A DNA stretch of 64,000 nucleotides. Source: Cetorhinus maximus. Taxonomy: Eukaryota. Below, piece after piece: positions 1,507 through 44,789 of this stretch. The notes below the pieces were generated by a model that had not been told where the DNA came from, did not search any database, and saw only the letters and a list, made by a program, of their open reading frames with translations. The DNA is taken from positions 173,104,001 through 173,168,000 of the forward strand of contig NC_135879.1 in NCBI RefSeq assembly GCF_964194155.1, written 5' to 3'. The position numbers and the translations under genes are program-made. Every line of letters begins with the position of its first letter. The stretch's first letter is position 1.

Positions 1507-2551
1507 GTGAAGCTAGATATTCTGAGGGGTGAGGGGGAGCGGAGGTGATGGTGGTGGTGTTGGACATTGGGTGTTAGGCTAAATCCATCATCAAGAGAAG
1601 GGTTGAATTAGAGAGTCTGGGTTGGGGTGGGTGTGATGGTGCTGGCTGTTTGCTGATCATAGGGTTCGATTGTGATGAGGAAAGCATTGGATCCAAGGGA
1701 AACACTCCTGTTCTTCCAGGCCCATAAGCAGTTTAGTAAAGGCCCTTGAATCAACCCTCTTGCTTCCTTTTACTTGCTGGGAATCCCAAATTGGGAATCT
1801 GGACCTCAATGTGTTAAAAATGAAAATGGAGTTAAAATGGAGGCACACAGCCTCCTTCAAAGATTTTAGTCACAAACCCACCTCCTGAGAGTGGGTTGAT
1901 CATCTACTGCCTAATCCGCCTCTATTAAAATTGGAAAAGGGGATTCGGAGGCAATTTGGGATTGGGTTTAAAAATTTAAAAATTTTAACCTTCTCACCCA
2001 GCCCACAAAGTTCTGCCTATTGACTATGTTTCTCTTCCCACAGGTCCTGTCTGACCTTCTGAATGTTTCCATTTTTTCTGATTTCATTTTTCACATCGGT
2101 GCTGCAGACCCTTAGCACTGCATCAGATTTTGCACATTTTGAATCAGCAAACTTCCACAGACAGCTCACTGAATTAAGGTTAAGTTAGGCTAGACCATAG
2201 AAATGGCAGAGGCCCCACATTGATTCCTTTGGGTGAGCACAGCACCTGACTTCTCTAGCCAACCAATATATGCTGCATAAGAAAATTGCCCAGTGAGGTC
2301 AAATTTCAGATCATTAATTATAAGGATTTGAACAAAGAAGTTGCCTTTTGCAATGGGGAGAAAATAAACAGGTAGTAGGATTGCACTGTAACACACGGTT
2401 ATAAGCTCACATCTCATCGTTTCATGAATCACTGCATTGGGGAATTTGACCAATTTCCCATCACAATTAAAATACCACAGAATTGAAAAATTAAAATTAA
2501 TTTTGCTTAGCTTTTCAAAAGTAATTTATCTAATCTAGACATTAAAAATAG

Positions 2552-2785
2552 ATTAAAAACAAAAAGCTACTGCGGATGCTGGAAATCCAAAACAAAAACA
2601 GAATTACCTGGAAAAACTCAGCAGGTCTGGCAGCATCGGTGGAGAAGAAAAGAGCTGACGTTTTGGGTCCACATGACCCTTCAACAGTTCTGTTGAAGGG
2701 TCATGTGGACCCGAAACGTCAGCTCTTTTCTTCTCCACCGATGCTGCCAGACCTGCTGAGTTTTTCCAGGTAATTCTGTTTTTGT
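2552..2785. mobile_element. Fold-back mini-element made of inverted Penelope pseudo-LTR sequence
   Basis: Arms 2592-2687 and 2690-2785 (96 bp, one mismatch seen, TT loop). TSD ATTAAAAATAG at 2541-2551 and 2786-2796. Sequence matches the termini of the Penelope copies at 18796 and 42123. Confidence 0.9.
2686..2724 (+). ncRNA. Minimal type-I hammerhead ribozyme motif (A6U core variant)
   Basis: AGTT-CTGTTGA-A-GGGTC-ATGTG-GACCC-GAAA-CG-TC-AGCT: stem I, core, stem II, GAAA, palindromic ACGT, GUC site. Confidence 0.7.
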
Positions 2786-5098
2786 ATTAAAAATAGGTTT
2801 TCTGAACAATTTTAAGATTGAACTTGTATACCAAATTTCATTTTTTCAAAATATATTTGGGGGTGGATGGGGCAGGGTGGGGTTGGGAAATGACCTGCTG
2901 AGATATTTAATATGTTCACTGTTGCTACTACAGTCGTTTCAGCACGTTACCTAAAGAATGGCATTGACCTTCAGATTAGTGACCATTTCATCTAAAAAGG
3001 TTAGATTGACTAGACTAATAGTCTCATATTCTATCTCATATTCTATCTTGACAACGATGAACAGGACACAACAGTTTTGGGGCATATTTTTCATTGCACT
3101 AAATACAGAAATGTTAAATGTAAGAGAATAAGTGCTAAGAGTTATGGTACTTTAACAAGCTGCCCCATGTGTTCATTTAGGTTGGTCACAATAAGATTTA
3201 CTCCTTATATAGTTTAGAAGTTGCTTCTTTTATTTTAGAAACTCAGCTGCAGCACTCTGGGTAGTGCTGGCCCAGATGTTATAATTTTTTTTAGGATGCA
3301 TTTAATTTGATAACAGCTGGTATTGCTAGCAAAGAAAGGCTGCCCTAGCCTTTGACATACCTGGAAATCATAACCTATAGCCCTGATTGTTATTGATTTT
3401 TCTTTCCTGGGGATTGCATTATAAAATCAATATTTTTTGCACAAGGTAAAATAGTTTACAAGGGCCGCAACATACTATTTGACTTCTGGAAACACACTGA
3501 GCTCTGTGAAACCACCCGGGCAGCCAATTAAGAGAAAACATCTATTAGGTAAAAACAGGTCAGTGCTATCGATCGCCATTGATTTTCTTATCACAGTGAA
3601 AGACAATCAATTAGAGAGAGGAGGCTAATGTTACAGATGCAATTTAATAACCCAAAAGAGAGGAGGGTTTATTGATCCCTGACGTGGAGCACTGAGATTT
3701 ATTGAAATATATTAAACTTCACCTGTCTTATGATCAAAAAAAGGCTGAATTAGAATTCAGCTGATGCAATAGAGTCAGCATTATAAAAGAAACTGTATGA
3801 GATCAGCCCTATTAGGAATTAAACTAAAACCGCAGAAGAAATATGAGGCTCAGAACTCAATACTAAATCACTGTGCTTTGAGTAAATCTGTATGTCTAGT
3901 AAAAGTTGGTTCTCTGTCCCTAACATACAGACAAGTGAACCACCTGTCATTTTCAGGAGGAAAGTCGGTTTTGTCAACCATCCACAAATGACAACTAAAG
4001 CCTTATTTGAGATTAAGGGGCACATTACAGCCCATTGTGCTCTGGTCTAAGTGCCAATTTATCTAGCTTTCTCTCTTCAGCAAACATGGGAGCAGATGTA
4101 TATGATAAAAAAATCTCTCTAATTATGCCACCATTTAAGAGAATACATAAAGAAAGATGTTGTATGTTCTTTAAAAAGGGTCTCCATGTAAAAAAGGGGA
4201 CAGAGGAAAATCTGACATTGCTAATGGCAATTAATGAAGTGTTGTTAGGCGCCACCATTACTGAACAAATAAACTTCTCCAGATTTGATATTAAAGCTTG
4301 CACCAGCTGGTGCACTGTTGTGTTTTGTCTGTAAATAGATGTACACCTTCATTGAGCCATTTTGGTAGACCTGAATGTGAAACTTTCCAACAAAGACTTT
4401 ATTGCATTTCACTGTGAAATGTGTATAGGGAAGGAAGAAGAAACATTGGCACATAGAAAATTATTTTTCGTTATTATTTACATCCCTTTCAATGCTACCA
4501 GCAGCTGCAATTCACATTAATTTGCAGGGCCAGTCAATTATAACATAAATGGAACCACTTGAGCTGGAGTAACTTGAAATTTTCAGAACATCTACACATG
4601 AAAAGACATAGGGAACCTGGTGTCAAAGCAAGCAGGCACCCTGATTCGATAAAACAACTTTCTTGTAGTCCATTCACCCTCAACAACTTTGGCATCAAAA
4701 AATATTAAAATATCTAATATTAAAATCCATCAAAATTAAAATTGCTGGATGGCAAATTATGTGGACCCTCTGGACTCAAATTTCTGTGTTTTTAAATTAA
4801 TTTATGGGATGTGAGCAATGCTGGCAAGGCCATTGTCCACCCGCTGCATTTAATTTTCCAACCATTTCTCCATGACACGTTCTAAAGGTCACCCTTCTTT
4901 AGTTCCTTTCTCTACCACCTTCCGCATCACCCATATTTTTGGAGTGCACTGTAATCATCAATAACCCCAGGAGACTCATTCCAAGAATTACTGAGGTAAG
5001 TTATCGAAATGACAGCTAAATGCCCAAGTGATTAAAGAAGACTCCTTCCAATGTTACTATTCCAATAAATAAATGTTATTTCTGTAAAAAGACCTTCT

Positions 5099-5290
5099 AT
5101 CAAAGCTTTTTGTCATGTACTCATCAGAACAATCAGAGTCCACTTGCCAATCAATCAGCACTCTCTTCTCATACAGCATAAAGTTGTTGCTTCCCCTGAC
5201 ATTGGTATTCTTGTGATTGTCCTGATGAGTGCAAGATGAAAAGCTTCAACAAAATGTCTTTTTTCAGCAATACTCAAGTTCTGTACTAAT
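5099..5290 (+). mobile_element. Solo pseudo-LTR of a second Penelope-like family with short inverted copy of its hammerhead
   Basis: 5131-5270 matches 39770-39912 (CAATCAGAGTC.ACTTGCCAA..AATCA.CAC...). 5099-5137 is an inverted copy of ~5215-5250. Confidence 0.8.
5217..5252 (+). ncRNA. Minimal hammerhead ribozyme motif, family 2 (CpG-decayed)
   Basis: TTGTC-CTGATGA-GT-GCAAG-AT-GAAA-AGCT-TC-AACAA. The copy at 39858-39892 keeps the pairing AC and GACAA bases. Confidence 0.65.
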
Positions 5291-5804
5291 AAATGCTACT
5301 TTTTTTTATTGGTAGACATGTTCCTTTTGGCTATCACCAATGTTATAACCAAATTGTTATAATATTTAAATTGCAGTCGTGTACAGCTGCTTTCTAGAAT
5401 TCAAAGCAAATCACTTTTTATGAAAGCTGGTACCATCACCAGATTAACTGACTAAACAACGAATTTTGTCTGAAGGGCAAACATCATGGTGGTGGCACTG
5501 GAAGTCGGTTTCCATTTGGTCATTAAGCGGTCAACCACACGCGATTTCACAGTGGCCGAGCAATTAACAAATGCAAAGCGCGAGGGCTGTCCAATCCCAG
5601 GCCCAGGTAGGAATGCAGGCAGTGAGGTCGGCGTCAGCTGATGTTGTGGTAGCTGCAGGTGCCATATTTAACGGGCTTTCAACCCTGCATTTGTTGTGGC
5701 CTGAACAAAGGACTCCACTGCTACTGCAGCCTTGAGCCAGCCTGTTGCTGCTTTGACTGAAGACTTAAACCAGCCAAGGGCCTCACCAGAAGGCTACAGT
5801 GACA

Positions 5805-17136: not shown

Positions 17137-17843
17137 GGGGAGAATTTTTGGCTTGGTGAGCGGGGGCATAAAATGAAGCAGGGTGACGTTGGGCGTGCGT
17201 CCCGATGTCACCGCGCGTCATTTAGATTTTCAGTTCGGCGGGTGTGCAGCCACCTTGGCTGCGCGCCCGCCGAACTGTCAAAGGCCTGTTAAGACCATTA
17301 ATTAACTAATTAAGCCTATTGAGAAAGTGGCCTGTCCAACCTTAAGGTTGGTGGGCAGGTGAAGAGCCCAGGCGGCCTTCGCATTTTTCATGGAACTTCA
17401 TCCACAGGCAGGATGAGATTTCATGAAGGGCTTTTAAATTAAATAAATTTTTCCATTAAAGTTCATTGACATGTCCCAGCTCATGTGACGCTGTCACTTG
17501 AGGGGACATGTCTTAATTTTTTTTTTCTTTACTAAAATTTTTAAAACTTATAACTTATCTCCCTGAGGCAGCTCCGTACCTCAGGGAGATTTCTGTGTTC
17601 TTTTGCGCGCATGAGCACTCCCGACTCCGGGAACGCACCACCTCCCCCCACCCCCCCACCCCGCCCACACAGAGAAAGCAAAGCACTTCCGGGTGCGTGT
17701 CATGCTGGGCGGGCCTTAATTGGCCCACCCACATAAAATGGTGGCATGGGCTCGATCAGGGGTGCCGATCGGTTCTGCGCCCACCCGCGCCCGCCCCCGC
17801 ACCCGCACAACCCCCCCCCCCCCCCCCCCACCCCCACCCCGAT
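17137..17843 (-). mobile_element. Harbinger-derived MITE (one TIR lost)
   Basis: GGGGAGAATTTT start plus the family internal palindromes (AACCTTAAGGTT, GACATGTCCC..GGGACATGTC, TCTCCCTGAGG..CCTCAGGGAGA). Strand is relative to 54312-58801. Confidence 0.9.
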
Positions 17844-18089: not shown

Positions 18090-18795
18090 ACGAGAAGGGA
18101 AGCTATTGCTGGAGATCCTCTGAAAAAGGTGATATAGGTGAGTGCAGTCCCACTGAACTGGACAATGAATGTTAAATAAAAGAGGAAATTGCTGTAGTCA
18201 ACCATGACCAAGGGTATAGAGAGATTTAGGAAATAATGTACCACAACTGTTGTCACAGAGATTTAATTTGTGATTGTGGTAGGGCCATTTAACTTACATG
18301 GTAGGGTGGAAACTTGGTCAGAGGGTTTTAAAACATGCACCTGCAGGAAGGATGGATGTTAATTTGAGTGAAAACAATGCATTGTAGGGTTTTGGAGAGG
18401 AAATAGTTGTAAATCACACAGAAGTCTGCAAGGAGAGCGAGGCAAAAGTGCATTGTTTTGAGGAGAGGGTGACGACAATAGATTTGAAAGGGATGGGGGC
18501 GGTACCTAAGGACAGGTAACTATTTCCGAAAACTAGTAGCAAGTGCACCAGAAAGGGAGGTTGGATGGTCAGCCATTTAGCAGAAAGGGGACAAAGGGAA
18601 CAGAAGGTGGTTCTCATGGATTGGATGTACGTGGATAAGGGGATATAGAGAAATGGAAGAAAAATAAGAATTCAGGGCTAAAGCAGAAAAGAGCCTGAGG
18701 GAATGTTTGACTAGGTGAACAAGGGAAGCAGCAGAGACAACTGAATCGGTGGTCTCAACTTTAGTGACAACAAAGCCCATGACATTTTTGCACTT
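18090..18795 (-). mobile_element. Old L2-like LINE fragment, continues past 20516
   Basis: Purine-rich degraded ORF2-like sequence, split by the Penelope insertion and its TSD. Confidence 0.55.
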
Positions 18796-20515
18796 AGATA
18801 AAAGCAAAAAACTGCGGATGCTGGAAATCCAAAACAAAAACAGAAATACCTGGAAAAACTCAGCAGGTCTGGCAGCATCTGCGGAGAGGAGCACAGTTAA
18901 TGTTTTGAGTCCGAATGACCCTTCAACAGAACTAAGTAAAAATGGGAGAGAGATGAAATATAAGCTGGTTTAAGGTGGGTGGGGGGGATGGCGGGGGGGG
19001 TGGGGGGGTGGGGTGGGTATGACAAGAAGAGCTGGATAGAGGGCCAGTGATAGGTGGAGATAACCAAAATATGTCACAGACAAAAAGACAAAGAGGTGTT
19101 GAAGGTGGTGTTATTATCTAAAGGAATGTGCTAATTAGAGGTAGAAAGCAGGATGAGCAAGGTACAGATAGCCCTAGGTGGGGTGGGGGGAAGGGATCGA
19201 AATAGGCTAAAAGGTAGAGATAAAACAATGGGTGGAAATACACTTAAAAATAATGGAAGTAGGTGGGAAAAGAAAAATCTATATAAATTATTGGAAAAAA
19301 CAAAAAGGAGGGGGAAAATCAGAAAGGGGGTGGGGATGGAGGAAAGAGTTCATGATCTAAAATTGTTGAACTCAATATTCAGTCCGGAAGGCTGTAAAGT
19401 GCCCAGTCGGAAGATGAGGTGCTGTTCCTCCAGTTTGCGTTGAGCTTCACTGGAACAATGCAGCAAGCTAAGGACGGACATGTGGGCATGAGAGCAGGGT
19501 GGAGTGTTGAAATGGCAAGCGACAGGGAGGTCTGGGTAATGCTTGCGGACAGACCAAAGGTCTTCTGCAAAGCGGTCACCCAGTCTGCGTTTGGTCTCTC
19601 CAATGTAGAGGAAACCGCATTGGGAGCAACGAATGCAGTAGACTAAATTGAGGGAAGTGCAAGTGAAATGCTGCTTCACTTGAAAGGAGTGTTTGGGCTC
19701 TTGGACGGTGAGGAGAAAGGAAGTAAAGGGGCAGGTTTTGCACTTTCTGCGGTTGCATGGGAAGGTGCCGTGGGAGGGGGTTGAGGTGTAGGGGCTGATG
19801 GAGGAGTGGACCAGGGTGTCCTGGAGGGAACGATCCCTGCAGAATGAGACCAGGGGGGGTGAAGGGAAGATGTGTTTGGTGGTGGCAGCATGCTGGAGTT
19901 GGCGGAAATGGTGGAGGATGGTCCTTTGAATGCGGAGGCTGGTGGGGTGATAAGTGAGGACAAGGGGGACCCTATCATGTTTCTAGGAGGGAGAAGAAGG
20001 TGTGAGGGCAGATGCGCGGGAGATAGGCCGGACACGGTTGAGGGCCCTGTCAACCACCGTGGGTGGAAAACCTCAGTTAAGGAAGAAGGAGGACATGTCA
20101 GAGGAACTGTTTTTGAAAGTGGCATCATCAGAACAGATGCGACAGAGGCAAAGGAACTGAGAGAATGGGATGGAGTCCTTACAGGAAGCGGGGTGTGAGG
20201 AGCTGTAGTCGAGGTAGCTGTGGGAGTCGGTAGGCTTGTAATGGATATTGGTGGACAGTCTATCACCAGAAATTTGAGACAGAGAGGTCAAGGAAGGGAA
20301 GGGAAGTGTCAGAGATGGACCATGTGAAAATGATGGAGGGGTGGAAATTGGAAGCAAAATTAACAAGTTTTTCCAGGTCTAGATGAGAGCATGAAGCAGC
20401 ACCGAAGTAATCATCGATGTACCGGAGAAAGAGTTGTGGGAGGGGGCCGGAGTAGGACTGGAACAAGGAATGTTCCACATACCCCATAAAGAGACAGGCA
20501 TAGCTGGGGCCCATG
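18796..20515 (-). mobile_element. 5'-truncated Penelope-like retroelement (RT C-terminus, GIY-YIG endonuclease, pLTR)
   Basis: MGPSYACLFMG..FLRYIDDYFG; YKPTDSHSYLDYSSSHP; LVYCIRCSQCGFLYIGETKRRLGDRFAE. TSD CATTTTTGCACTT at 18783-18795 and 20516-20528. Confidence 0.95.
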
Positions 20516-21109
20516 CATTTTTGCACTTGTTGGGTGGTGGAGGGATAGGAAAGAGGGATAGGGAAGAGAAGAAGCTGGGGATTAACTTTGCTCTTCAGGG
20601 CGATCTTAAAATAATGAATGGTTTTGACAAAGAAGAACAAGGACATTTGTGGTTCAAACGTCAATAGACTTATCCATTGCTCTAAAAAATACAATTAGCC
20701 TAAGAAGATATGTAAAAGTTTGTTACTGTCCTGTTATATATACAATAGAACCCCAAATGCCTAAGCTCCATGGACATAGTGGCCTGGAACGTCTTTTGAG
20801 TTACAACAACACTGTCACCTTAACATCATAGCTCTGTTTATGTGCATAACAGGGTTTCTAAGTCAAGTCTGACAAAGTTACAGCTGCAGAGTGGGGACAG
20901 GTCCAAGGTAATTTTAGGCCATTCTTTTTGTGCATGGTAACTTGTATTTACAAATGAAGCTACAATCTCAAGGTCAATTCATTTGAGATCCACTTTTTAT
21001 TTAAACCCAAAAGATGGGTTAATATTCACTCATTTTACTCAATAATTTACTCATAGCTTCATGAATTAATACTAAAAATTCATAAACATCTCTCAACAGC
21101 AATATGCTG

Positions 21110-21490
21110 TTGGCAGCATAGTGGTTCTATCACTGAACTAGCAATCTGGAAGCCCAGTCTAATTCTCGGGGGACAAAGGTTTAAATCCCACCATGACAGC
21201 TGGTGAAATTTCAATTCAATTAATAAATCTGGAATTTAAAAAAAGCTAGCCTCAGTAATGAAACAATTATCGAATGTTGTAAAAATTTGTGTGGTTCACT
21301 AATGTCCTTCAGGGAAGAAAATCTGCCATCCTTACCTGGTCTGGCCTATATGTGACTCCAAACCCACAGCAATGTGGTTGACTGTTAAATGATGTCTGAA
21401 ATGGCTTAGCAAGCCACTCAGTTAAAGGGAAATTAGAGATGGGAAACAAATGCTGTCTTGCCAGTGATGCCTGGATCCCATGAAAAAAAA
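21110..21490 (+). mobile_element. tRNA-type SINE with LINE-derived 3' tail
   Basis: Box A/B-like head (GGCAGCATAGTGG..GGTTTAAATCCC). The tail resembles the LINE end at 14351-14420 and finishes in poly(A). Confidence 0.75.
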
Positions 21491-21659
21491 ATCCAAGATG
21501 CTTTAGAGGCAGAAAACTGATCTGAATTTTCATGAAAAATATTGATAAGTTTCTGAAAGTGATAACAATGAATATTTTTAAAACAAATCTTCCAATACAT
21601 TTTGTAGCTTTAGTCCTGATCACAGATATCATCAAATTCACTTTGACTAAAAACTTAAA

Positions 21660-24230
21660 TCCATTTAGAGACAGTGATCATTGTATCATAAGGTTTAGGT
21701 TGGCCTAAAAGGACAATGAACAATCCAGAATAAGAATAATTAACTGGGGAAAAGCCAACTTCAATGAGGAAAGAATGGATTTGACCTAGATAAATTGGAA
21801 TCAACAGTTGGCAGGCAAAATGGTGTCTGAACTTTGGGCTGCATTTAAAGAAGAGATAGAGCAGCAGAGTCAAGTTATGTTCCCACGAAGAGGAAAGGCA
21901 GGGCAAACAAATCCTGAGCTCCTTAGATGAAAATGGGTGTAGGGATTAAGATGAAGAAAAAAAGTGTGCTTATGACAGATGTCAGGTGGATAATACAACC
22001 AAAATGAAGGTTCAGAGGGGAACTGAGAAAGCAAATAAGAGGAGCAAAGAGCAACTATGAGAAGAGATTGGCATCTAACATAAAAGGGGAATCAAAAAAT
22101 CCCCTGTAGGCATATAAATAGTAAAAGAGTGGTAAAAAGAGGAGTGGGGCCGATTAGAGACCAAAAGGGGGTTATGTACGGAGGCAGAGGGCATTGCTGA
22201 GGTATTAAATGAATACTTTGCATCTCTCTTTACCAAGGAACAAGGTGCTATGCATATCATGGTGAAAGAGGGTGTAATTCAGAGACCCAAAGGTTTAAAG
22301 TTGATCAGGAGGTGGTATTGGATAGGCTGTCTGTAGTTAAGAGTTGATAAGGCACCAAGAATGGATGGGATGCATCCAAGGATACTGAGGAAAGTGAGAG
22401 TGGATATTGCAGAGGCACTGGCCATAATTTTCCAATCTTCCTTAGAAGCAGGGTGGTGCCAGATGACTGGAGAATAGCAACTATTACACAGTTGTTGATT
22501 AAATGGTGTAAAGTTAAGCCCAGCAACTACAGGCCAGTCAGTTTATCCTCAGTGGTGGGGGAGTTCCTAGAAACAATAATTCAGGACAAAATTAATACCC
22601 ACTTGGGAAAATGCAGTTAACCAAGGAAAGTCAGCATGAATTGTTAAGGGCAAATCATGTTTAACTAATTTGCTGGAGTTTTCTAATGAGGTAACAGAGA
22701 GGTTTGATAAGGGTAATGCTCATGATTGGTCTTCCAAAAGGCATTTGCTAAAGTGCCACACAACAGACTTGTGAACAAAGGTAGAGTTCATGGTAGAGAA
22801 AGGACAGTAGCATCATGGGACTCGATTTCATAGGGGTGCCGTGGTCTCCGAACACCTAGCTAAAAAGTCACTGACAGGTCTGCCCACCATTGTGATGGTT
22901 GCCTCTCAGCAATTTAACGCTGGGAGCAGCACTAATTGTTTAAAGGTGACTTCTGCCCTTATCTCGAGAGTAAGTTCCACCTTAGAAAGCCAATCAGATA
23001 GTCGCAGTAATGCCAGATGAGACCGATGGCTATTGCAAGGATTCCAGGCGGGTCCCAATGATTAGGATCTCGGAATTCAGGTAAATCTGGGGTACAGTAT
23101 TGCCTGGGGGCAGGCTGGCAGGCCCTGGTGAGGGGGCTGAGGGGTTGGGGGACTTGGTTTGAGAGGCCACAGCGGGGAGATCAGTAAGGGGGAAGGATAA
23201 TCTTGACGGGAGTGGTACCTCTAAAAGGCACAGGGGACCCTGGCCCGGCATCAACCTGCACAGCTAAAGCTGCTGGGCTTCTCACATAACGTGGGCCTGC
23301 CCCTGCTGTGGGCAAAATAGAGGCAGGGGTTGGATGAGGCCCTTAAGGGGCCATTAATTTGAGACAGGTGGGGGGCAGTTGGGTAGGCAGCAGGCAAGCC
23401 ACACACTGGACTTTATGAGCCTCCCGCTTTTTAATCTGCGGGCAGGGAGCGTAAAATCCAGCCCATGGATACAAAATTGGCTGAGTGACATGAATCAAGG
23501 AGTAGTGGTTAATGAATGTTTTTTTGGGCTGGAGGAAGGTTTGTGGTGGAGTTCCCTGCTGGCCGGTCTAAGGACCCTTGCTCTTCCTGATATATATTAA
23601 AGGCGTAGACCTTGGTGCACAGGGCACCATTACAAAATTTGCAGAGGATACAAAGCTTGGAAGCATTGTGAACTGTGAGGAAGTTGGTGCTGAACTGCTA
23701 AAGGACATAGATAGGTTTTGATGGAATGGCTGGACAAGTGGCAGATGAAACTTAATGCAGAGAAGTGGGAATTGCAGAGGCACTGGCAATAATCTTTCAA
23801 TGTTACCTGGATTTGGGTGCGGGTGGGGAGGTTGCTGGAGGACTGGAGAATTGCAAACATTTACGCCCTCCTTCAAAAAAGGTTGTAAAGATCTGTCCTG
23901 CAATTACAGGCCAGCTAGGTTAAATCCGATGGTGGGGAAACTTTTAGAATCAATCATTCAGGATAGAATTAATAGCCACGTGGAAAAACGTGGATTGATT
24001 CAGAAGAGTCAGCATGGATTTGTTAAAGGGAAATCATGTCTAACTAACTTTCTGGAGTTTTTTGAAGAGGTAACAGAGATGATTGATGAGCTCAAGTTGA
24101 TGTGGTGTATATGGGCATTCGATACAATGCCACACAACAGGCTTGTAAGGAAAGTTATAGGTCATGGAATAAAAGGGACAGTAGCAACGTGGTTACAAAA
24201 TTGGCTGAGAAACTGATAGTAATGTTTAAT
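21660..24230 (+). mobile_element. Degenerate CR1 LINE ORF2 fragments (at least two copies)
   Basis: NYRPARLNPMVGKLLESII and SQHGFVKGKSCLTNFLEFFEEVT motifs; the same region appears at ~22400-22810 and again at 23766-24216. Confidence 0.9.
22818..23464. mobile_element. Harbinger-type MITE of a second family inserted in CR1
   Basis: TIRs GGACTCGATTT / AAATCCAGCCC; ATG TSD at 22815-22817 and 23465-23467; CR1 reading GTVAS-WIQNWL rejoins across it. Confidence 0.8.
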
Positions 24231-24484
24231 ATCACCACCGTCAACACCTCTTTATCCTTTTGTCTATGACATCTTTTGGCAATCTCCACCTATTACTGGC
24301 TCTCTATCCAGCTGTACCTGTCCTACTCCCAACCACCCCCCCCCCCGCCACCTTAAACCAGCTTATATTTCACCTCTTTTCTATTTTTCCTTAGTTCTGA
24401 TGAAGAGTCATTTGGACTCGAAACGTTAACTGTATTCCTCTCTGCAGATGCTGTCAGACCTGCTGAGCTTTTTCCAGGTATTTT
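24231..24484 (+). mobile_element. Penelope 3' UTR/pLTR fragment inserted in CR1
   Basis: Reverse complement of ~18840-19115; TSD TGTTTAAT at 24223-24230 and 24485-24492. Confidence 0.9.
24392..24432 (+). ncRNA. Minimal type-I hammerhead ribozyme motif with canonical core
   Basis: TAGTT-CTGATGA-A-GAGTC-ATTTG-GACTC-GAAA-CG-TT-AACTG. Confidence 0.82.
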
Positions 24485-25540
24485 TGTTTAATGGGTATTT
24501 TTCAGACTGGAAGAAGGTTTGTAATGCAGTTCCCCAGGGACCCCTGGGACCTTGGGTATTGAGACCCTTGCTTTTCCTGATACATATAAATGATCTAGAT
24601 CTCGGTATACAGGGGACAATTTTAAAGTTTGTGGATGACACAAAACTTGGGAGGATTGTAAACTGTGAGGAGGACAATGTAGAACTTCAAAAAGACATTG
24701 ACAGATTGGTGGAGAGGGCAGATAGGTGGCAGATGAAGTTCAACACGGAGAAGTGTGAGGTAATACACTTTGGTACAAAGAACATGGAGAGACAGTATAA
24801 CATAAAGGATACTATTCTAAAGGGTGTGCAGGAACAGAGAGACTTTGGTGTATATGCACATTAGTCATTAAAGTTGGCAAGGCAGGTAGAGAGAGTTGTT
24901 TCTAAAGCATACAGTATTCTAGGCTTCATTAATAGGGACATAGAGTACAAGAGCAGGGAGGTTATGATGAATTTATATAAGACACTGGTTAGACCTCAGC
25001 TGGAGTATTGTGTACAGTTCTGGGTGCCACACTATAGGAAGGATGTGAACTCATTGGAGGGAGTACAGAACAGGTTTATGAGAATGGCTCCAGGAATGAG
25101 TCACTTCAGTTATGAGGAAAGATTGGAGAAGTTGGGACTGTTTTCCTTGGAGAGGAGAAGGCTAAGAGGAGACTTGATAGAAGTTTTCAAAATCATAAGG
25201 GGTCTGGACAGAGTAGATAGGGAGGAACTGCTCGTAAATAGAATGAGAAGCAGAGAGCACAGTTTTCAAGTGTTTTGCAAAAGAAGCACATGCGAGGTGA
25301 GAAAACATTTTTTCACATAGCGAGTAGTTAGGGTTTGGAAAGCACCGCCTGGAAGTGTGTTAGAGGCAGGTTCAATTGAAGCATTCAAGAAGGCATTGGA
25401 TGATTATTTAAATAGAAACAACGTGCATGGTTACGGGGAAAAGGCAGGAGACTGGCACTCAGTTCAAATGCTCAGAGAACCGTGCAGACACGACGGGCCA
25501 AGTGGCCTCCTCCTACACCATAACAATTCTGTGATTCTGT
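24485..25540 (+). mobile_element. CR1 LINE RT to 3' end
   Basis: VPQG..LFLIHINDL..KFVDDTKL; LYKTLVRPQLEYCVQFW; LERRRLRGDLIEVFKI; tail ATTCTGTG repeat. Confidence 0.95.
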
Positions 25541-29496: not shown

Positions 29497-30016
29497 GCCC
29501 AAATTTGAGCTGGTTCCTTACATGCCCTTTGAAGTCGCAAACCCTCGGAGTAGTGTTGGCTGGACCACGACAACTTTCAGATAAGCATATGTTGCACCAT
29601 GGAAGTTGTGGGGCCTCTGCAACATCCAGTCGTGAACTCTGAATGTATTATCACTCTTGGCTCTTGCAAAACCTGGCTCCATCATGCACCAGTAAAATAG
29701 CCTAATTATCAGTTTGAACACTGCTGCATTGGTGAACATAACTTCATATCTCATATGATTTGGCTAAGTTTCCTTCATCTGTGGATTTATCATTGGAAGA
29801 GCACTAGAACAGTTTTTAAACTTGCTGGTGTTAGACTGCCAAGAACCCATCTAACTCTCATTATGCACCTTCATTGAATATTTGTACTGAGTTCCACACA
29901 TTAATAGTGTCCCTGTTTCTTTGGAGGCTGGAGAGAAAAAGTCAAGATCAAAGGCTCAAAGCAGCATTTTACACCTATGACTATATAGCTGACTATCAGT
30001 GGTAGGGTTCTGTGTT
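29497..30016. repeat. Local duplication, copy 1 (paralog 33280-33808)
   Basis: Colinear similarity with long identical tracts, e.g. TAAGTTTCCTTCATCTGTGGATTTATCATTGGAAGAGCACTAGAACAGTTTTTAAACTTGCTGGTGTTAGACTGCCAAGAACCCATCTAACT. Confidence 0.95.
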
Positions 30017-30171
30017 CAAACACCATTCCACGGAGTGCTACACTATGGAGATGACATTTCTTGGATAAAACATTAAACTGAGGCCCCAGCTGGATGTAGA
30101 AGATTCCATGGCACTATTTCAAAGAAGAGCAGGGATGTCTTAACCAATATTTATCCCTCAACCAACCTCTA

Positions 30172-30796
30172 GGGCAGAATCTTCTGTTTGGTGTGCTGGG
30201 GCGAGCCCCGCACGCCGACACGCAAAATGATGGCTGTGCGTCCCGACCTCACCGCGCATCATTTCGATCTTCAGTTCAGCAGGCATGCACCAGAGTCAAC
30301 TGCATGCCCGCCGAACTCTCACAGGCCTGTTAAGGCCATTAATAAACTAATTAAAGAGATTGTCAGGGCTGCCCATCCAACCTTAAGGTTGGTGGGCAGG
30401 TGAAGAGCCCAGGCGGCCTCCACATTTATCATGAAACCTTATCCACGGGCGGGATGAGGTTTCATGAAGTACTTATTAATTAAATAAAATTTTTCATGAA
30501 AATTCATAAACATGCTCATGTGACACTTTCACACGAGGGGACATGTCTGAATTGTTTTATTTTGTTTTTGCAATCTTTATAACTGAACTTAATCTCCCTG
30601 AGGCAGCTCCGTGCCTCAGAGAGATTTCTGCGAAAGAGCGCAGGCCCCGACTCTCCTACCTCCCCCTGTACGCACAGGAAGCACTGAGCCCACGCAAAAT
30701 GGCGGCACGCAGCCGATCGCGGGCAGCGATCAGCTCCTCATCCGCCCGCGCCCGCTCCGGCTGGCCCGCCCACCCAACGGGGAGAAAATTCTCCCC
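30172..30796 (-). mobile_element. Harbinger-derived MITE
   Basis: TIRs GGGCAGAAT / ATTCTCCCC; CTA TSD at 30169-30171 and 30797-30799. Confidence 0.93.
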
Positions 30797-30866
30797 CTAG
30801 TTTTACGTTGCTGTGCCCCAATTGACTGTCACGTTTCCTATATTATCTCAGTGGCCAAACTTGAAT

Positions 30867-31491
30867 GGCAGCATTTTCCCATCGGCGAGCAGGGGGCAGG
30901 TCCCATCCGTCGACATGTAAAATGACGCGCAGTGACATCGGGCAGGCATCCCGATGTCACCGCACGTCATTCAGATGCTCAGTTCGGCAGGTGCGCGGCT
31001 GAGTCGGCTGCGTGCCCGCTGAACTGTCAAAGGCTTATTAAGGCCTGTTAAAAAGTAAATAAAGTAATTAACTGAGCTGCCCGTCCAACCTTAAGGTTGG
31101 CGGGCAGGTGAAGAGCCCAGGCGGCCTTCACATTTTCACGAAACCTCATCCATGGGCGGGATGAGGTTTCATGAAGGGTTTATTATTTAAATAAAAATTT
31201 TTGACATAAACAATGGACATGTCCCAGCTCGTGTGACAGTTTCACATGAGGGGGCATGTGCTTAAATTTTTTTCCCACCTTTATTCAAATTTCCATAACT
31301 TAAACAAATCTCCCTGAGTCACCTCCCATACAGGTAGCTCAGCATTTCCAGGCGCGCGTCACGCCGGGTGAGCCTTAATTGGCCCGCCCATGTAAAATAG
31401 CAGTGTGGACCCAATCGGGTGCGCCAATCGGGTTCGCGCCCGCTTCCGCCCGCCCCCGCAAAACCACCCCGACGGGGGGAAATTTCTGGCC
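30867..31491 (-). mobile_element. Harbinger-derived MITE
   Basis: Family palindromes; ends GAAATTTCTGGCC. Confidence 0.9.
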
Positions 31492-31496
31492 TTTAC

Positions 31497-32295
31497 TTAG
31501 ATAAAAGCAAAATACTGTGGATGCTGGAAATCTGAAACAAAAGCAGAAAATGCTGGAAAAACTCAGCAGGTCTAACAGCATCTGTAGAGAGAGAAAAACA
31601 TGCATGAGAAAGAGTGCAGTTTTCTCCGTGGGGCATGGAGCTGCCTCAGGGAGATTGGTTAAAATTTTTAAAAGCTAAATAGAGGGAAGAAAATATTTTA
31701 AGACATGTCGCCTCATGTGACAGTGTCACATCAATTGGGACATGTCAAGGAGCATTAATGAAAAGCTTTATTTAACTTATAAAAACTTCATGAAACCTCG
31801 TCCCACCCGTGGATGAGGTTCCATGAAAAATGCGAATGCCGCCTGGGCTCTTCGCCTGCCGCCAACCTTAAGGTTGGACGGGCAGCTTACTTAATTGTTT
31901 TAATTAGTTTTTAACAGGTTTTAATAGGCCTTTGACTGTTCGGTGGGCGCGCAGTCGACAGCTGGAAATCTAAATGACGCGCGGTGACATCGGGACGCAT
32001 GCCCGATGTCACGGCGCGCCATTTTATGTGTCAGCGAGTTGGCCCCGCCCCTGCTCGCTGACCTGAAAATTCTGCCCAATGTTTCGAGTCTGTATGACGC
32101 TTCTTCAGAGCAAGAAGGAGGGTCTGAAGAAGCATCATACAGACTTGAAATGTCACTCTGTTACTCTCTCCACAGATGCTGTTAGACCCGCTAAGCTTTT
32201 CCAGCATTTTCTGTTTTTGCGTCACTCTGTTACTCTCTCCACAGATGCTGTTAGACCTGCTAAGATTTTCCAGCATTTGCTATTTTTGCTTCAAA
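31497..32295. mobile_element. Penelope pLTR fold-back element split by a partial Harbinger MITE (31600-32078)
   Basis: Left arm 31497-31599; MITE ends GAAAATTCTGCCC at 32078; centre and right arm 32079-32295 with a hammerhead-like motif at 32120-32158 and a ~70-bp tandem duplication. Confidence 0.85.
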
Positions 32296-32766: not shown

Positions 32767-33208
32767 GGGGTTAGAGTTCGGTTGGCTAACAAACTCATTT
32801 ACACAAGACATATAACCTACCCAAAGTCCCAAACCATTTTCCTGAGTCAAAAGTTGTTAATTATGCATGGCATGAGGTGGGATTTTCACTGCCAATGTGA
32901 TGCTCACCAGTGTCACTGGAAAGAATCTAGTAGTGTTGCTGTTGGTACCATAAGGGCAGTGAAGGGCCATTTAAGGTGCAGAGCAGCCATGAAGATGGTA
33001 TGGGCTGTAGCCTCCTAAGTGTCAGCAGGGGCTGAGACGTCAATGGATAAGTAAGTGGGGAGCAACTTTATAAGAAAGATGCACCCTATTAAAGCCTCTT
33101 TCTCCACTGCTGTACTTCGGGAGTATGTCAGTTATTGGTTTAGGCATAATTTAAATTCCAGAAAGAGGATTTCAGTTTCCTAGTGGTTTAACTTTGCTTT
33201 AAAGTAAC

Positions 33209-33275
33209 TTTAACCCTCAATTGTTTGTCTATTGTATCAAAAAATGATACAATAGACAAACAATTAAGGGTTAAA
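33209..33275. repeat. 31-bp inverted repeat with 5-nt loop
   Basis: TTTAACCCTCAATTGTTTGTCTATTGTATCA-AAAAA-TGATACAATAGACAAACAATTAAGGGTTAAA, one mismatch. Confidence 0.95.
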
Positions 33276-33279
33276 ATTA

Positions 33280-33808
33280 GCACAAATTCGTGCTGGTTCC
33301 TTACATGCCCCTTGAAGTGGCAAACCCTCGGTGTAGCATTAACTGGCCCACCGCTACTTTCAGATTAGTGCACACAGATGTCACATCACTTTAGAAGTTG
33401 TGGGGCCTTTGCAACATCCAGTCATGAACTCTGAATGTATTATCACTCTTGGCTCTTGCAAAATCTGGCTCCATCATGCATCAGCAAAGTAACCTAATTA
33501 TCAGTTTGAATACTGCTGCATTGGTGAACATAGCCAAATCATATGAGATATGATGTTAAGTTTCCTTCATCTGTGGATTTATCATTGGAAGAGCACTAGA
33601 ACAGTTTTTAAACTTGCTGGTGTTAGACTGCCAAGAACCCATCTAACTTTCATTATGCATTTTCATTGAATATTTGTACTGAGTTCCACACATTAGTAAT
33701 GCCCCTGCTTCTTTAGGGGCTAGAGAGGAAAAGTCAAGGTCGAAGACTCAATGTAGCATTTTATACCTATAACTATATAGCTGAAGATCAGTGGCAAGGT
33801 TCTGTGTT
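33280..33808. repeat. Local duplication, copy 2 (paralog 29497-30016)
   Basis: Same orientation and colinear with copy 1. Confidence 0.95.
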
Positions 33809-34755: not shown

Positions 34756-34908
34756 AGGTAAACAATTTGAAAAGGGAAATAGGTACATGGGTTAAGAGGT
34801 CTAGACTGAAAGAAAATGTAGGGCTAAGGTTAAATGGAAGGGGTTTAGCGCAGACAGCAGGTGAAATTGATTAACACAGAGCATTGCAAGGATGGGGAAT
34901 GCGCTCCT

Positions 34909-35620
34909 GGCCCTGAACTTTTCAGGCTGCAGGTGGGCTCGGCGGGAACAGGCGGGGACGGCCGCGGAGCTGATCGCCGCCTGCGATCGGCTCTGCAACG
35001 CCATTCTACATGGGTGGGCCAATTAAGGCCCGCCCAGTGTAATACGCCAGCTGTAGCGCTCAGTGCTACCTGTGCAGACGGGGGGAGGAGGAGAGTCAGG
35101 GCCAGCGCTCTTTCGCGCGCATGCACGAGAAACAGCGCTTCAATCTCCCTGAGGCACAGAGCTGCCTCATTGAGATTGAATCGATGTTGAAACAATTAAA
35201 TAAATGGTTTAAAAATGTATTTACACATATGCCCTCATGTGACTGTGCCCCATGAGATGGGACATGTTTTTATATTTTTTAGGCAATTTTAAAAAATTTA
35301 TTTAATAAACGCTTTAGAAAACCTTATCCTGCTCGTGGATGAGGTTTCCTAAAAATCGCGAAGGCCGCTTGGCCTTTTTGCCTGCCCGCCAGCCTTAAGG
35401 TTGGATGGGCAGCATAAAAAATTAGATGAATTACTTTCTTAATGGCCTTGATAGGCCATTTACATATTGGTGGGCATGCAGCCGACTCCGGCACGCACCC
35501 ACCGAACAAAATATTGAGGGGCTGCGTGATGTCGTCAGGATGCATGCCCAACGTCATTGTGCGTCATTTTACGTGTCTGCGTGTCGGGCCCATCCCCGCA
35601 CGCTGACTGAAAAATCCTAT
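34909..35620 (+). mobile_element. Harbinger-derived MITE
   Basis: GGCCAATTAAGGCC left motif, family palindromes, degenerate TIRs. Confidence 0.9.
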
Positions 35621-36065: not shown

Positions 36066-36294
36066 GATTAAGGCAAAACACTGCAGATGCAGGAAATCTG
36101 AAACAAAAACAAAAATTGCTGGAAAAGCTCAGCAGGTCTGACAGCATCTGTGGAGAAAAAGACAGAGTTAACGTTTCGAGTCCGTATGACGACTCTAACG
36201 AAGAGTCATACAAACTCGAAACGTTAACTCTCTCATTCTCTTCACAGATGCTGTCAGACCTGCTGAGCTTTTCCAGCATTTTTTGTTTTTGTTT
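36066..36294. mobile_element. Penelope pLTR fold-back mini-element
   Basis: Inverted arms ~36101-36190 / ~36206-36294 centred on a decayed hammerhead (CTAACGA-A-GAGTC..AACTC-GAAA-CG-TT-AACTC). Confidence 0.88.
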
Positions 36295-37029: not shown

Positions 37030-37493
37030 TCAGATCTGCCTCAGGGAGATTAATTTGATTGTGAAAAATGGAAAGAAAGAATTAAAAAAATTATTCAGAC
37101 ATGTCCCAGCTCATGTGACAGTGTCACATGAGCTGGGACATGTCTATGAATTTTAATAAAATTTTTTATTAAAGTTATAAACCCTTCATGAACCTCATCC
37201 TGCCCGTGGATGAGGTTCCATGAAAAATGCAAAGGCCGCCTGGGCTCTTTGCCTGCCCGCCAACCTTAAGGTTAGACAGGCAGCCCTGACAAGCACTTCA
37301 ATTAGTTGATAAATGGCCTTAATAGATCCTTGACAGTTTTGCGGGCGGACAGCCAACTCCAGTGCGCGCCCGCCGAACCGAAGATTGGAATGATGCGCGG
37401 TGACGTCGGGACGTACGCCTGACGTCACCGTGTGTCAGTTTATGCATCAGCATGAGGGGTCGTCCCCTGCACACCAACCAGAAGATTCTGCCC
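37030..37493 (+). mobile_element. Partial Harbinger-derived MITE
   Basis: Perfect palindrome at ~37097-37145; ends GAAGATTCTGCCC. Confidence 0.9.
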
Positions 37494-39915: not shown

Positions 39916-40029
39916 CTAAAGAGCTGATTGCATATGCCAGGGGTCTTGCCCGACCTGGACCACTACTTGCTGTGGCCATATGTTTTTGCTATGTAGCGAG
40001 TATGCATGTTGTGTTTAATCAGATTTTAA

Positions 40030-40310: not shown

Positions 40311-42122
40311 TGCCTATAAAATGATTTGTTTAAGCAAGAATTATACCCAATATTGCTTCACTTGTATTAGAGGAATAAGAAAAATACATAGGTGCATGAA
40401 CGGCTGAAGGAAAAATTCAATTTTTGTATTTCTAGGTGGAGTACAGGACTTGCTCATGCAGAAAAAAAATGAGTTTCTCTATGGAAAATGATGTATTCTG
40501 GTTAAGTTTAAGCAATTTTAAACTTCGCAATTAATGCACTTACAACTTAAAAAAGAAAACAAAGTACGATTTGAATTATCAGCAGAGCAATCATACTTTC
40601 ATTGACACAAAAGCTACCCAGTCAGTGCTCCACCTCTCCAGCTCGCAAAGACATTCTAATCGCTCCGCAAGAAAACAAGAAAGAAAGTAAGCTTATATAA
40701 CGCCTTGCCATATTGTCATACCTTCAGGATGTTCCTAAGAGCTTCACATCCAATACAAGGATGATCCGGAAATGTTTGTTGATTGCCAAATACAAAACTA
40801 TTATTCAAATGTTCAATATTACTTCGGCCTCTTAAAAATTTGAAAAAGGATTCTCTTTAAAAAGGGCTCAGTCCAATTTCTTCTCTATCGTGTATGCATA
40901 TCTGGAGTGAAGGGCTTTGATTCAAACTTACCTGAAGAATAATCCCAAGGAAAAGAACAGGTCCCTTCACTCACTGCATCGTTTTCTTCTTCGGCATCCG
41001 TCTGTCTAGGAGACGGTGGACTGTGCACAGGGTGTAAATCGCTTCTGGATTGGACATCATCTGTTGTGGCTATAGAGGCCAATTCACAAGTGATTGTTCC
41101 TTCTGTAGCTGGCAAAGATGAATGTCATTGGCCCGAAGTTGACTGATGTTGTTTTCCTTCTGGCAGGCTCTCTTTTCTGCCATCTTGTCATTTCTTTTGT
41201 CCTCTGCTTTTTCCACACCCTTTTTTGACAGTTTGTCTTCAGGCACTCCAGTCAGCAATGAGGACATTCCATGCATCGGCACCGACCCAGGTCAGCTTGA
41301 GGTCTCGCTTACAGGTGTCCTTGCATTACAGACGTGGGTGACCTGTTGGCCTTGTGCTTATAGTAGGCTCGCCATAGAGCAATAGAGCATGTCTTTTGGC
41401 ATGTGCACATGACCCAGCCATCAGTGTCGCCGCTGAATCAAAACAGCACACATGCTGGGGATCCCCGCATGCTGGGGGACTTATATATTCGGCACTCCAG
41501 GAGTTGCCCAAAATTTGCCTGAGGCAGAGGGAGTGTAAGATGTTCAGCCACTGTTCTTGGCTTGCATAAGTTGCCCATGCTTTGCTACTGTAAAGGAGGG
41601 TGCAGAGAACACAAGCCTGGTACACAAGGAGATTTGTATTTTCGGTTAGTTTGCTGTAGGCCCACACTCAACCTCTCAACTTTGACATGACAGCTGCGGT
41701 CCTGGCAAACCTGGTGCTGATTTTGCCATTGAGGGACAGATTGTTGGTAATGGTTGACCTAAGGTATGTGAAGCTGTCAACGACCTCCAGAGTGAGGTTG
41801 TCAATGTTGATGGAAGGTGGAGTCTCTACGTCCTGGCCCATAACTTTGGTCTTCATGACACTGTTCATATGTCCAAACTCCTTGCAAGTCTGGGAGAATC
41901 GATCTACAAACTGTTGCAAGTGAGCTTCTGTGTGGGATGCTAGCATGGTGTCATCAGCAAACAGAAGAACATAAGAAATAGGAACAGGAATAGACCATTC
42001 GGCCCCTCAGGCCTGCTCCGCCATTCAATAAGATCATGGCTGATCTTCTTGTGTTTTAATTTCCACATTCCCATCTACCCCCTATTACCTTTGATTCCCT
42101 TGCCTAACAAGAATCTATCTAC

Positions 42123-43490
42123 AACAAAAACAGAATTACCTGGAAAAACTCAGCGGGTCTGGCAGCATTGGCGGAGAAGAAATCAGTTAACGTTTCGAGC
42201 CTTCATGGCCCTTCGGCAGAACTGAAGCATAGTTAGAAGAAGGGAGAAATATAAATTGGTTTAAGGTGGGTTGGGGGGGGTGGAGAGACACATTGAGGGT
42301 GTGGTGATTGTGGAGATGAGCAGATAATCAAAAGATGTCACAGACAAAAGGGTCAAAGAGGTGTTGAAGGTAGTGATATTTGTCTAAGAAAAGTGCTAAT
42401 TAAGAATGGAAGACAGGATATTCAAAGTACAGCTCTAGTGGGGGTGGGGTGGAAAGACTAACAAGGTTTTAGTTTAGATTTAAAAATAATGGAAATAGGT
42501 GGGGAAAGAAGAATCTATATAAATTATTGAAAAAAAAAGGGGGGGGGGAAGAAACGGGTTGGGGATGGGGGGAGGGGGAGTTTAAGATCTAAAGTTGTTG
42601 AATTCAATATTCAGCCCAGAAGGCTGTAAAGTGCCTAGTCGGAAGATGAGGTGCTGTTCCTCCAGTTTGCGTTGGGCTTCACTGGAACAATGCAGCAAGC
42701 CAAGGACAGACATGTGGGCAAGAGAACAGGGTGGAGTGTTAAAATGGCAAGCGACAGGGAGGTTTGGGTCTTTCTTGCGGACAGACCGCAGGTGTTCCGC
42801 AAAACGGTCGCCCAGTTTGCGTTTGGTCTCTCCAATGTAGAGGAGACCGCATTGGGAGCAACGAATGCAGTAGACTAAGTTAGGGGAAATGCAAGTGAAA
42901 TGCTGCTTCACTTGAAAGGAGTGTTTGGGCTCTTGGACGGTGAGGAGAGAGGAAGTGAAGGGGCAGGTGTTGCATCTTCTGCGTGGGCATGGGGAGGTGC
43001 CATAAGTAGGGGTTGAGGAGTAGGGGGTGATGGAGGAGTGGACCAGGGTGTCCCGGAGGGAATGATCCCTACGGAATGCCGTCATGGGGGGTGAAAGGAA
43101 GATGTGTTTGGTGGTGGCATCATGCTGGAGTTGGCGGAAATGGCGGAGGATGATCCTTTGAATGCGGAGGCTGGTGGGGTGATAAGTGAGGACAAGGGGG
43201 ACCCTATCATGTTTCTGGGAAGGAGGAGAAGGCGTGAGGGAGGATGCGCGGGATATGGGCCGGACACGGTTGAGGGCCCTGTCAACGACCGTGGATGGAA
43301 AACCTCAGTTAAGGAAGAAGGAGGACATGTCAGAGGAGCTGTTTTTGAAGGTAGCGTCATCAGAACAGATGCGACGGAGGCGAAGGAACTGAGAGAATGG
43401 GATGGAGTCTTTACAAGAAGCGGGGTGTGAGGAGCTGTAGTCGAGGTAGCTGTGGGAGTCGGTAGGCTTGTAATGGATATTGGTGTTTTT
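42123..43490 (-). mobile_element. 5'-truncated Penelope-like element (GIY-YIG + pLTR)
   Basis: ORF 42582-43085 with CPRRRCNTCP and LVYCIRCSQCGLLYIGETKRKLGDRFAEHL; TSD AAGAATCTATCTAC at 42109-42122 and 43491-43504. Confidence 0.95.
42184..42224 (-). ncRNA. Minimal hammerhead motif (A6C core variant)
   Basis: Minus strand CAGTT-CTGCCGA-A-GGGCC-ATGAA-GGCTC-GAAA-CG-TT-AACTG. Confidence 0.68.
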
Positions 43491-44789
43491 AAGAATCTAT
43501 CTACCTTTGCCTTAAAAAATATTCAATGACACCACCATCACCACTCTGAGGCAGAGAGTTCAAAGTCGCACAACTCTCTGAGAGAAAATTTTCTCTTCAT
43601 CTCTGTGCTAAAAGGGTGACACCAAATTTTAAAACAGTGCCCCCTAGTTCTGGACTCGCCCACAAGAGGAAACAACCTTTCAACGTCCACCTTGTCAAGG
43701 CCGTTCAGGATCTTATATACTTCAATCAAATCACCGCTCACACTTCTAAACTCCAGTGGAAACAAGCCCAATCTGTCCAACCTTTCCTCATAAGACAACC
43801 CACTCATTCCAGGTATGCAGCAAACAGCAATGAACGGACGAGGACATTACACACTTTGGTCTTGTTGTGCAGTCTTGCCAAGTTGAACAGCTTGTTGTCA
43901 GCTCTGGCATGCAGGTATACACTCTCATTTGAGTTGCAAAAAAGCCTGCACATTCATCGGAAACTACCTTGCTTATAGGGGAATTACCAACAAACAGGAC
44001 TGCTTTAAAACATGAGGCCTAAGTCCTATTCGTTATGATGTGTCATTCTTTTGTATAAGCCTTAATGCTAGAATAGCTCTTGTCCCTTGTTAAAACTCAG
44101 AAATCAGAAGGATCCTTCCTTAAAATTCATGGAATCTAATATTGAAAAATACTAGGAAGACATACCAGATGGCAACCTCTGAAAGTTTTTCTTCAGACTC
44201 CAGAAGCTCATTAATGTTAAAAAGGCAGATGTCTGAAATCATGATTTAACATCAATATTTATTATGTTTCTGCCTATTTTACAGATGGCGCTGATGATAC
44301 ACCGTTATTGGAGTCACTTGACTAAGAAAAATAGCCTAAAAACACAGGATGTATATCACCAGGAGAAAAGAAGTGACAGAAGTTAGATCTAAAGGAGGAT
44401 GCACACCAGACGCTTTGAGAGGAACAATGAAAGGTATATAGACAGAACAGAGGGATACATGGGGATAAACAAATACATGAAATGTCTGGAGCAATAAATA
44501 GAGGGAATCTTTTTGGACCATTAATAGGTTATTCCTATTCTATAAACTGCATATATTTTACAGAAAAAAACTTCCCTGCATTAGCATCAGCATTAAGTAC
44601 TATGAATTCCTTCGTGTGTCTAGGAGTTCAAAGTCTTGTCAATACAGATGTTACCAAAAGCACATAAGGAAAAATTAAGTAAAATTAACATCATTGAATT
44701 TTACATGGAGACTATTCTGGGCTTATGGGACACAGTGAGTGGTATTTGGGGCAATATGCAATTACACTTTTTTATTGTTGCTGCAATCT

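Follow-up and report, generated by a model that had tools for sequence, protein, structure and literature searches.

We describe a 234-bp palindromic insertion at positions 2541 to 2796 of a 64,000-nt stretch of the Cetorhinus maximus genome (contig NC_135879.1, positions 173,104,001 to 173,168,000), called the window below. Head-to-head insertions of a Penelope-like element (PLE) form a continuum, and this insertion, at its short end, does not represent a hairpin family. It belongs to the insertions of endonuclease-bearing (EN+) PLEs; both the architecture and the kind of mobile DNA are known. What is new here is a pair of fixed sites at which the arms stop and a case for paired priming over fold-back. 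We favor, with moderate confidence, an origin by paired priming from two target nicks on one RNA, with end-joined cDNAs that make strong stops at the AGTT 5' end of the RNA or at the cut of a hammerhead ribozyme. A stricter version is more tentative. In it, paired priming is obligatory and uses two sites flanking the PLE "tail" on one RNA, strong-stop cDNAs end where transcription starts and where the hammerhead cuts, and the genome is a nucleotide-resolution record of the later steps of Penelope transposition.

Structure of the palindrome and its parent element

The palindrome contains two inverted arms of 96 nt each, with one mismatch and a 2-nt loop. It lies between two exact 11-bp copies of the target-site duplication (TSD) ATTAAAAATAG. 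A preliminary description of this DNA had reported the arms, loop, and TSD, and all were confirmed on the sequence. With one mismatch allowed, the TSD is 14 bp long, which is the modal length in the family. The palindrome folds at -195.1 kcal/mol (z, -28.9), and none of 200 shuffles was equally stable. The 40 nt before the first arm are unpaired and correspond to the tail. In tandem units, the tail follows the end of the pseudo-long terminal repeat (pLTR) and precedes the open reading frame (ORF), and it marks the outer initiation site of the reverse transcriptase (RT). The preliminary description had the element made of pLTR only. Its arms are the pLTR end, as proposed; the tail, which was not named, is also present. 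Read on the minus strand, the interval consists of an inverted pLTR without tail and a pLTR with tail, placed between TSDs (Table 1).

By sequence comparison, the arms correspond to the 3' end of a PLE that has RT and GIY-YIG domains and is apparently active. The Penelope origin proposed earlier is thereby supported. In a protein search, 150 scored matches (of 120,064 candidates) were 98 to 100% identical, and many lay in open frames of 924 amino acids (aa). The 924-aa frame gives matches slightly below the Pfam cut-offs to RVT_1 (E, 1.8e-6) and to GIY-YIG (E, 4.9e-4); in a window copy, GIY-YIG is above the cut-off. The parent encodes RT together with a GIY-YIG domain at the C terminus in a single ORF, its pLTR arises by partial tandem duplication with a 30- to 40-nt tail at one end, and inverted 5'-truncated copies have a TSD around the whole insert. 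All three features are those of EN+ PLEs. The unit, as seen in 20 long loci, is 3.3 kb and contains the tail, a short leader, the ORF, the 3' untranslated region (UTR), the hammerhead, and the pLTR end. A 15-nt arm motif occurs 27,276 times in the genome, versus 6 times for a control. The parent also carries a CxxxxCxxC motif before GIY-YIG. Such a linker motif is described for Neptune/Nematis PLEs (PMC8557442). The parent may thus belong to the Neptune clade, which is marked by a Zn-finger-like linker between RT and EN.

The youngest subfamily (L131 to L150) has many intact 924-aa frames that are 98 to 100% identical genome-wide, and its arms are longer than one unit. It appears from these frames to be currently or recently active. 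It also has a 275-aa frame that is conserved and runs in a different phase within the N-terminal region.

A splice-donor-like CAG/GTAATT is conserved near the pLTR end of all copies (window 2770-2776), and the tail contains AG acceptors. It is possible that they delimit a 5'-UTR intron, as in Drosophila virilis Penelope. Eighteen sequencing runs, all in the form of assembled contigs, were considered; 14 were labelled or guessed as RNA (shares, 0.13 to 0.28), and 4 were compared with the element. The contigs of these 4 runs yielded no transcript starts, and no GT-AG joint was found among the joints shown from them.

On each strand, a hammerhead begins at the symmetry axis. It was recognized by a relaxed pattern, folding, and stem conservation. 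It contains stem I (AGUU/AGCU), the core CUGUUGA (2690-2696), stem II (GGGUC/GACCC), and GAAAC-GU-C. The fold has the minimal type I layout, with stems I and II and a palindromic short stem III. In 168 distinct arms, G-U pairing and compensatory substitutions preserve stems I and II. Of these arms, 141 have CUGUUGA as the core, 25 have CUGCUGA or CUGCCGA, and 1 has CUGAUGA. The hammerhead claimed earlier at the axis does start there and keeps its stems; its core is a variant and not the canonical CUGANGA. The pattern CTGANGA gave no match to this hammerhead, and no hammerhead model matched in an Rfam scan. The scan returned only sub-threshold microRNA (miRNA) hairpin matches, which were dismissed as generic.

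Recurrence of the palindromes and the sites at which arms stop

An exact pattern retrieved 1,349 palindromic centers from the genome and none with the control, so the palindromes number at least 1,349. The first 50 in genome order served as the unbiased sample. The tail was one-sided in 49 of these loci, on neither side in 1, and on both sides in 0. A TSD of at least 11 bp was present in 37 of 50 loci, versus 0 of 50 with swapped flanks, and the modal length was 14 bp. The recurrence and the TSDs described earlier therefore stand. An alternative source of such loci is an assembly artefact (palindromic reads) or later recombination of two nearby inverted copies. Two inverted PLE loci, one long (L133) and one short (L078), lack the tail and have inverted host flanks, as this would predict; these larger palindromes are either assembly artefacts or secondary inverted duplications. 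For the population, such an origin is extremely unlikely. TSDs enclose the whole unit, the tail is one-sided, arm mismatches are of the CpG-decay type, and the 1,349 loci have varied centers.

The preliminary description offered a propagating non-autonomous hairpin family as one explanation and set identical against different centers. The centers are different, with 37 strings among the 50 unbiased loci. If the palindrome were copied as a unit (a hairpin retrozyme, or an element like a miniature inverted-repeat transposable element [MITE]), close relatives should match along their length, and they do: all 40 scored matches (of 2,659 candidates) are 94 to 100% identical and cover nearly the whole element, and one center recurs in 12 of the 30 closest copies. 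Those 30 copies nevertheless show 15 junction types (by eye). The center of the element recurs on unrelated arm haplotypes, and a single haplotype carries many centers, which refutes this strong form. The haplotype of the element was found in 150 exact arms, and 20 of the first 30 continue into the 3' UTR or ORF. Since centers vary on the same arms and the haplotype resides mostly in read-through copies, the center is rebuilt at each insertion. Internal sequence is not inherited with the arm haplotype as in MITEs. In a weaker form, mini-copies would be transcribed from their own initiator (Inr) and the mirror half rebuilt each time; D. virilis Penelope has an internal promoter (PMC2377424), which would permit this form, and its products would look the same in sequence. 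Taken as a whole, unit copying is very unlikely. Non-LTR retrozymes (bioRxiv 10.64898/2026.07.22.740005) are likewise short, non-coding, hammerhead-bearing, and PLE-derived. They form head-to-tail tandems that propagate as units, whereas the inserts described here are head-to-head, single, and dispersed, with no retrozyme-like tandem organization.

The arms of the 50 palindromes end preferentially at one site. For 63 of the 100 arms, the terminal base is the A or the G of (C/T)AGTT; another 11 read through, and 26 are shorter. The same site was seen in 60 arms from two samples unselected for palindromy (two pairs share a locus): 19 start within a few nucleotides of it (15 by BLAST and 4 by eye), versus about 6 over the 57 nt that follow. 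Non-inverted solo copies, about 100 bp long, also begin at (C/T)AGTT, with a TSD in three of seven checked (L225, L231, and L110). The stop is therefore independent of hairpin formation. The sequence TATATTT lies 28 to 30 nt upstream in 26 of 26 read-through contexts (the pattern allowed 23 to 40), and the site matches the Inr consensus. PLE start sites have been located in the pLTR (PMC8557442, PMC2377424, PMC6765202). We infer from this promoter-like context that (C/T)AGTT is the putative capped 5' end of the RNA, that is, the transcription start.

The axis of the palindrome lies at this Inr-like site, 29 nt behind a TATA-like box, and not at the predicted hammerhead cut, which is about 35 nt downstream. 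The second explanation offered earlier was fold-back at a ribozyme-defined RNA end. Rebuilding at an RNA end at each insertion holds; that end is not the ribozyme cut, and two cDNAs fit better than fold-back. A second hammerhead-bearing family gives the same picture. It has 37 palindromes, and in 14 of 15 examined loci an arm reaches about 20 nt upstream of the ribozyme core. Thirteen of 15 arms stop within 4 nt of that point (by eye), which in the window copy is 24 to 28 nt behind a TATA-like box. Lying this far from the ribozyme and behind such a box, the stop tracks promoter geometry and not the ribozyme edge.

The cDNAs could also be joined in pairs while the AGTT stop has another cause, either a splice-related end (AG as a 3' splice site) or an RT stop at the ribozyme structure or a bound protein. 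The AG of AGTT ends a polypyrimidine tract, and YAG stands directly before TTCTG. In D. virilis, the 5' edge of helix I is where an intron ends (PMC4209133). These two points count against a transcription start. Under splicing, however, the G or AG included in the 63 arms would be intronic, and no upstream exon recurs in the 50 centers. A stop caused by the ribozyme does not fit the second family. RT stalls are expected on entering a stem and not on leaving it. We regard these other causes as unlikely.

A second class contains 323 palindromes without the ribozyme core (control, 0). In its first 40 loci, the tail was one-sided in all 40 and a TSD was present in 33. Of their 80 arm ends, 16 coincide exactly with the predicted hammerhead cut; the next class has 7. 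CC additions were seen at 3 of 22 arms ending at +2, too few to claim a cap-templated C.

A deep contig over the pLTR in run X2 was considered as a start-site signal and rejected. Its upstream letters match one unique locus (L206, G000:C25:39816502-39819525), so it reflects host read-through. L206 contains a unique solo PLE stump whose ribozyme start is locally duplicated over a short length; a 109-bp tandem follows. It is probably inside a highly expressed host transcript, as it matches the very deep contig.

Formation of the mirror half

Paired priming would proceed as follows. An endonuclease-bearing PLE protein, a predicted dimer acting in cis, would nick both strands of the target at a spacing of about 14 bp, and each 3'-OH would prime reverse transcription on the same RNA or on RNA of the same source copy. 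One cDNA would start at the outer and the other at the inner end of the tail, and both would extend toward the RNA 5' end. Their 3' ends would be joined by 1 to 4 nt of microhomology or by a few untemplated or locally templated bases. A transcript starting at the Inr-like A or G of (C/T)AGTT would give two "strong-stop" cDNAs of about 100 to 140 nt and hence the 234-bp palindrome. A hammerhead-cut template would give a palindrome about 70 bp shorter, without the ribozyme core. A template longer than one unit would give long inverted elements, and priming from a single nick would give a non-inverted copy.

A closely related characterized system is PAc (Poseidon, green anole; Frangieh et al. 2024, PMC11167929). 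In vitro, its protein, also a predicted dimer, cuts and extends both target strands, and two RT start sites on the RNA delimit the tail. PAc also has a minimal hammerhead near the ORF start. That study reports neither a role for the ribozyme cut nor reads at it and leaves the later steps open, whereas in the present genome the junctions have a peak at the predicted cut and the two start sites are used pairwise.

The principal rival is fold-back, in which a single cDNA 3' end snaps back and copies itself, or cDNA self-primes on antisense RNA. Self-priming on an antisense template is a published proposal (Arkhipova et al. 2013, PMC3846280). Among the 20 long loci, 16 are inverted, and 15 of these have one tail. 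In 10 of the 15 the arm that reaches further 5' is the tail-less one, and in 5 it is the tail arm (by eye). Some loci (L096 and L097) combine a short arm with a long one, of kilobase length at L097. An arm extending further 5' than the tail cDNA, as in the 10 loci and L097, cannot have had that cDNA as its template, and a tail-less cDNA cannot supply the tail. Both mirror-image junction polarities occur, with 6 versus 2 exact cases in the 50 unbiased loci. Fold-back of the tail cDNA predicts one polarity and a second arm that is never further 5'. The junction type of the element, which keeps the tail-less 3' end intact, is therefore unattainable by it. The 2 exact junctions are of the type that a 2-nt-loop fold-back gives. 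Six of 50 centers in a subfamily with an AGCT site are similar to that type (compared by length only). This subfamily has 124 centers, and 19 of the first 50 are zero-loop palindromes (by eye). Such centers are consistent with two 3' ends annealed through AGCT, and fold-back does not provide the two ends they require. In addition, the end of the second arm is the second RT start site that was observed on sense RNA in vitro (PMC11167929).

Arms within a locus share haplotypes, as fold-back would also give. They differ by 2.9 within loci and 7.1 between loci (45 of 50 loci kept). In the long loci, the within-locus difference is below the between-locus median in 14 of 15 (L149 was left out). This suggests that both arms of one locus share one source. 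Given paired priming, we infer that one RNA molecule was read twice, once by each cDNA. On the combined evidence, fold-back is distinctly unlikely.

Several observations weigh against paired priming with stops at two RNA ends. Arm concordance fits fold-back or later gene conversion equally well; only 8 of 15 long loci are strictly closest to their own partner arm, and 23 of 45 short ones are tied-closest. The 20 long loci were chosen for long frames or pairs and not at random, and L133 is inverted with no tail and with inverted flanks. The peak at the cut site lies among short palindromes (GTTAAC and AACGTT) that could bias junctions. The conserved A6 is absent from the hammerhead core in all but 1 of 168 arms. 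In the anole system, hammerhead mutants left in vitro insertion unaffected, and no RNA-seq reads ended at the hammerhead cut (PMC11167929).

The layout of an inverted pLTR plus tail is known for EN+ PLE insertions (Arkhipova et al. 2013, PMC3846280; Craig et al. 2021, PMC8557442; Schostak et al. 2008, PMC2377424). These share with the present element the head-to-head arrangement, the tail at one end, the TSD, the pLTR hammerhead, the parent with RT and C-terminal GIY-YIG, and the partial tandems. That literature has variable truncation and antisense self-priming; in the present genome, two fixed sites account for the stops in thousands of copies, and their junctions favor two sense-templated cDNAs. 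The origin of the inverted ends with a one-sided tail and in vivo cutting by minimal PLE hammerheads are both stated to be open (PMC3846280, PMC8557442, PMC11167929). In the literature outside subscription papers, the repeat databases (Repbase/Dfam), and supplements, we found no account of fixed-end PLE mini-palindromes, including in cartilaginous fish, and no report of twin priming in PLEs or of genomic ends at a ribozyme cut.

In L1 twin priming, both target strands prime cDNA on one RNA, which produces an inversion between TSDs. Paired priming as proposed here is alike in these respects. The L1 cDNAs cover different parts of the RNA, whereas here they overlap almost fully and start about 40 nt apart.

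The family is very active, with intact ORFs, and its thousands of minimal insertions provide countable junctions that separate fold-back from paired priming. The palindrome population favors paired priming and points to two RNA ends, the RNA start and the hammerhead cut. If the stricter version is true, the cut-site class would provide evidence for in vivo cutting of PLE RNA, in the germ line, by a minimal hammerhead without A6. The host would also gain thousands of near-perfect hairpins of 60 to 100 bp, some of which may be transcribed as short templates. For annotation, PLE-stump palindromes resemble MITEs or miRNA hairpins, as in the sub-threshold Rfam matches.

Related copies and other features of the window

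Two non-inverted copies in the window, whose element sequence spans 18799-20516 and 42124-43487, extend past the arm into the ORF with its GIY-YIG domain (Table 1). The preliminary description had assigned the same architecture to intervals at 36066, 31497, and 5099. The inverted layout is present in all three; they depart from the element in TSDs that are absent or imperfect, in asymmetry, and in an interruption. No TSD was found at 36066..36294 or at 31497..32295, where one was looked for. A reading of 18799-24489 as one long inverted element was dropped because 18799-20516 has its own separate 13-bp TSD.

Table 1. Positions of the parts of the element and of related features in the window
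Feature	Position	Strand	Remarks
Left TSD	2541..2551	+	11 bp, exact; 14 bp (2541-2554) if one mismatch is allowed
Unpaired PLE tail	2552..2591	-	Matches unit positions 1-40 of full elements
Tail-bearing arm (pLTR end)	2592..2687	-	About 4 nt trimmed at axis; one substitution in GAAA box region
Head-to-head junction	2686..2689	+	AG microhomology; AGTT is the putative RNA 5' end (Inr-like) and the 5' strand of hammerhead stem I
Minimal type I hammerhead	2686..2724	+	Predicted cut after 2720
Tail-less arm (pLTR end)	2690..2785	+	Ends at inner RT initiation site
Right TSD	2786..2796	+	
Second hammerhead-bearing family, strongly asymmetric inverted insertion	5068..5298	.	Insert at 5077-5290; 11-bp TSD with one mismatch
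Non-inverted, 5'-truncated copy with tail	18783..20528	-	RT/GIY-YIG remnants; 13-bp TSD
Older palindromic copy	31497..32295	.	Inverted layout, split by 480-bp unrelated repeat (31601-32080)
Older palindromic copy	36066..36294	.	Tail and inverted arms 14 nt apart; center inside ribozyme core
Non-inverted, tail-less copy, youngest subfamily	42109..43504	-	GIY-YIG domain; 14-bp TSD
Copies of a repeat of about 500-700 bp	17160-17590, 30170-30800, 30860-31480, 31601-32080, 34900-35620, 37030-37500, 45790-46490, 47590-48010		

Window 39500-39921 contains a degenerate 3' end of the second family. It encodes a PLE-like C-terminus, followed by CCAAT and TATA-like boxes and then a decayed hammerhead. 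The frequent repeat of about 500 to 700 bp is GC-rich at its ends and contains a perfect palindrome of 24 bp internally (37097-37145). The older PLE palindrome at 31497..32295 is split by a nested copy of it. A hairpin at window 33205-33279 is AT-rich, with 35-bp arms around a 5-nt loop, and is unrelated to PLE ends. A small hairpin at window 62023-62096 is known only as a weak Rfam miRNA-like match. A direct duplication of about 190 bp (window 29800-29990 and 33595-33790), its copies about 3.8 kb apart, is apparently non-PLE (by eye).

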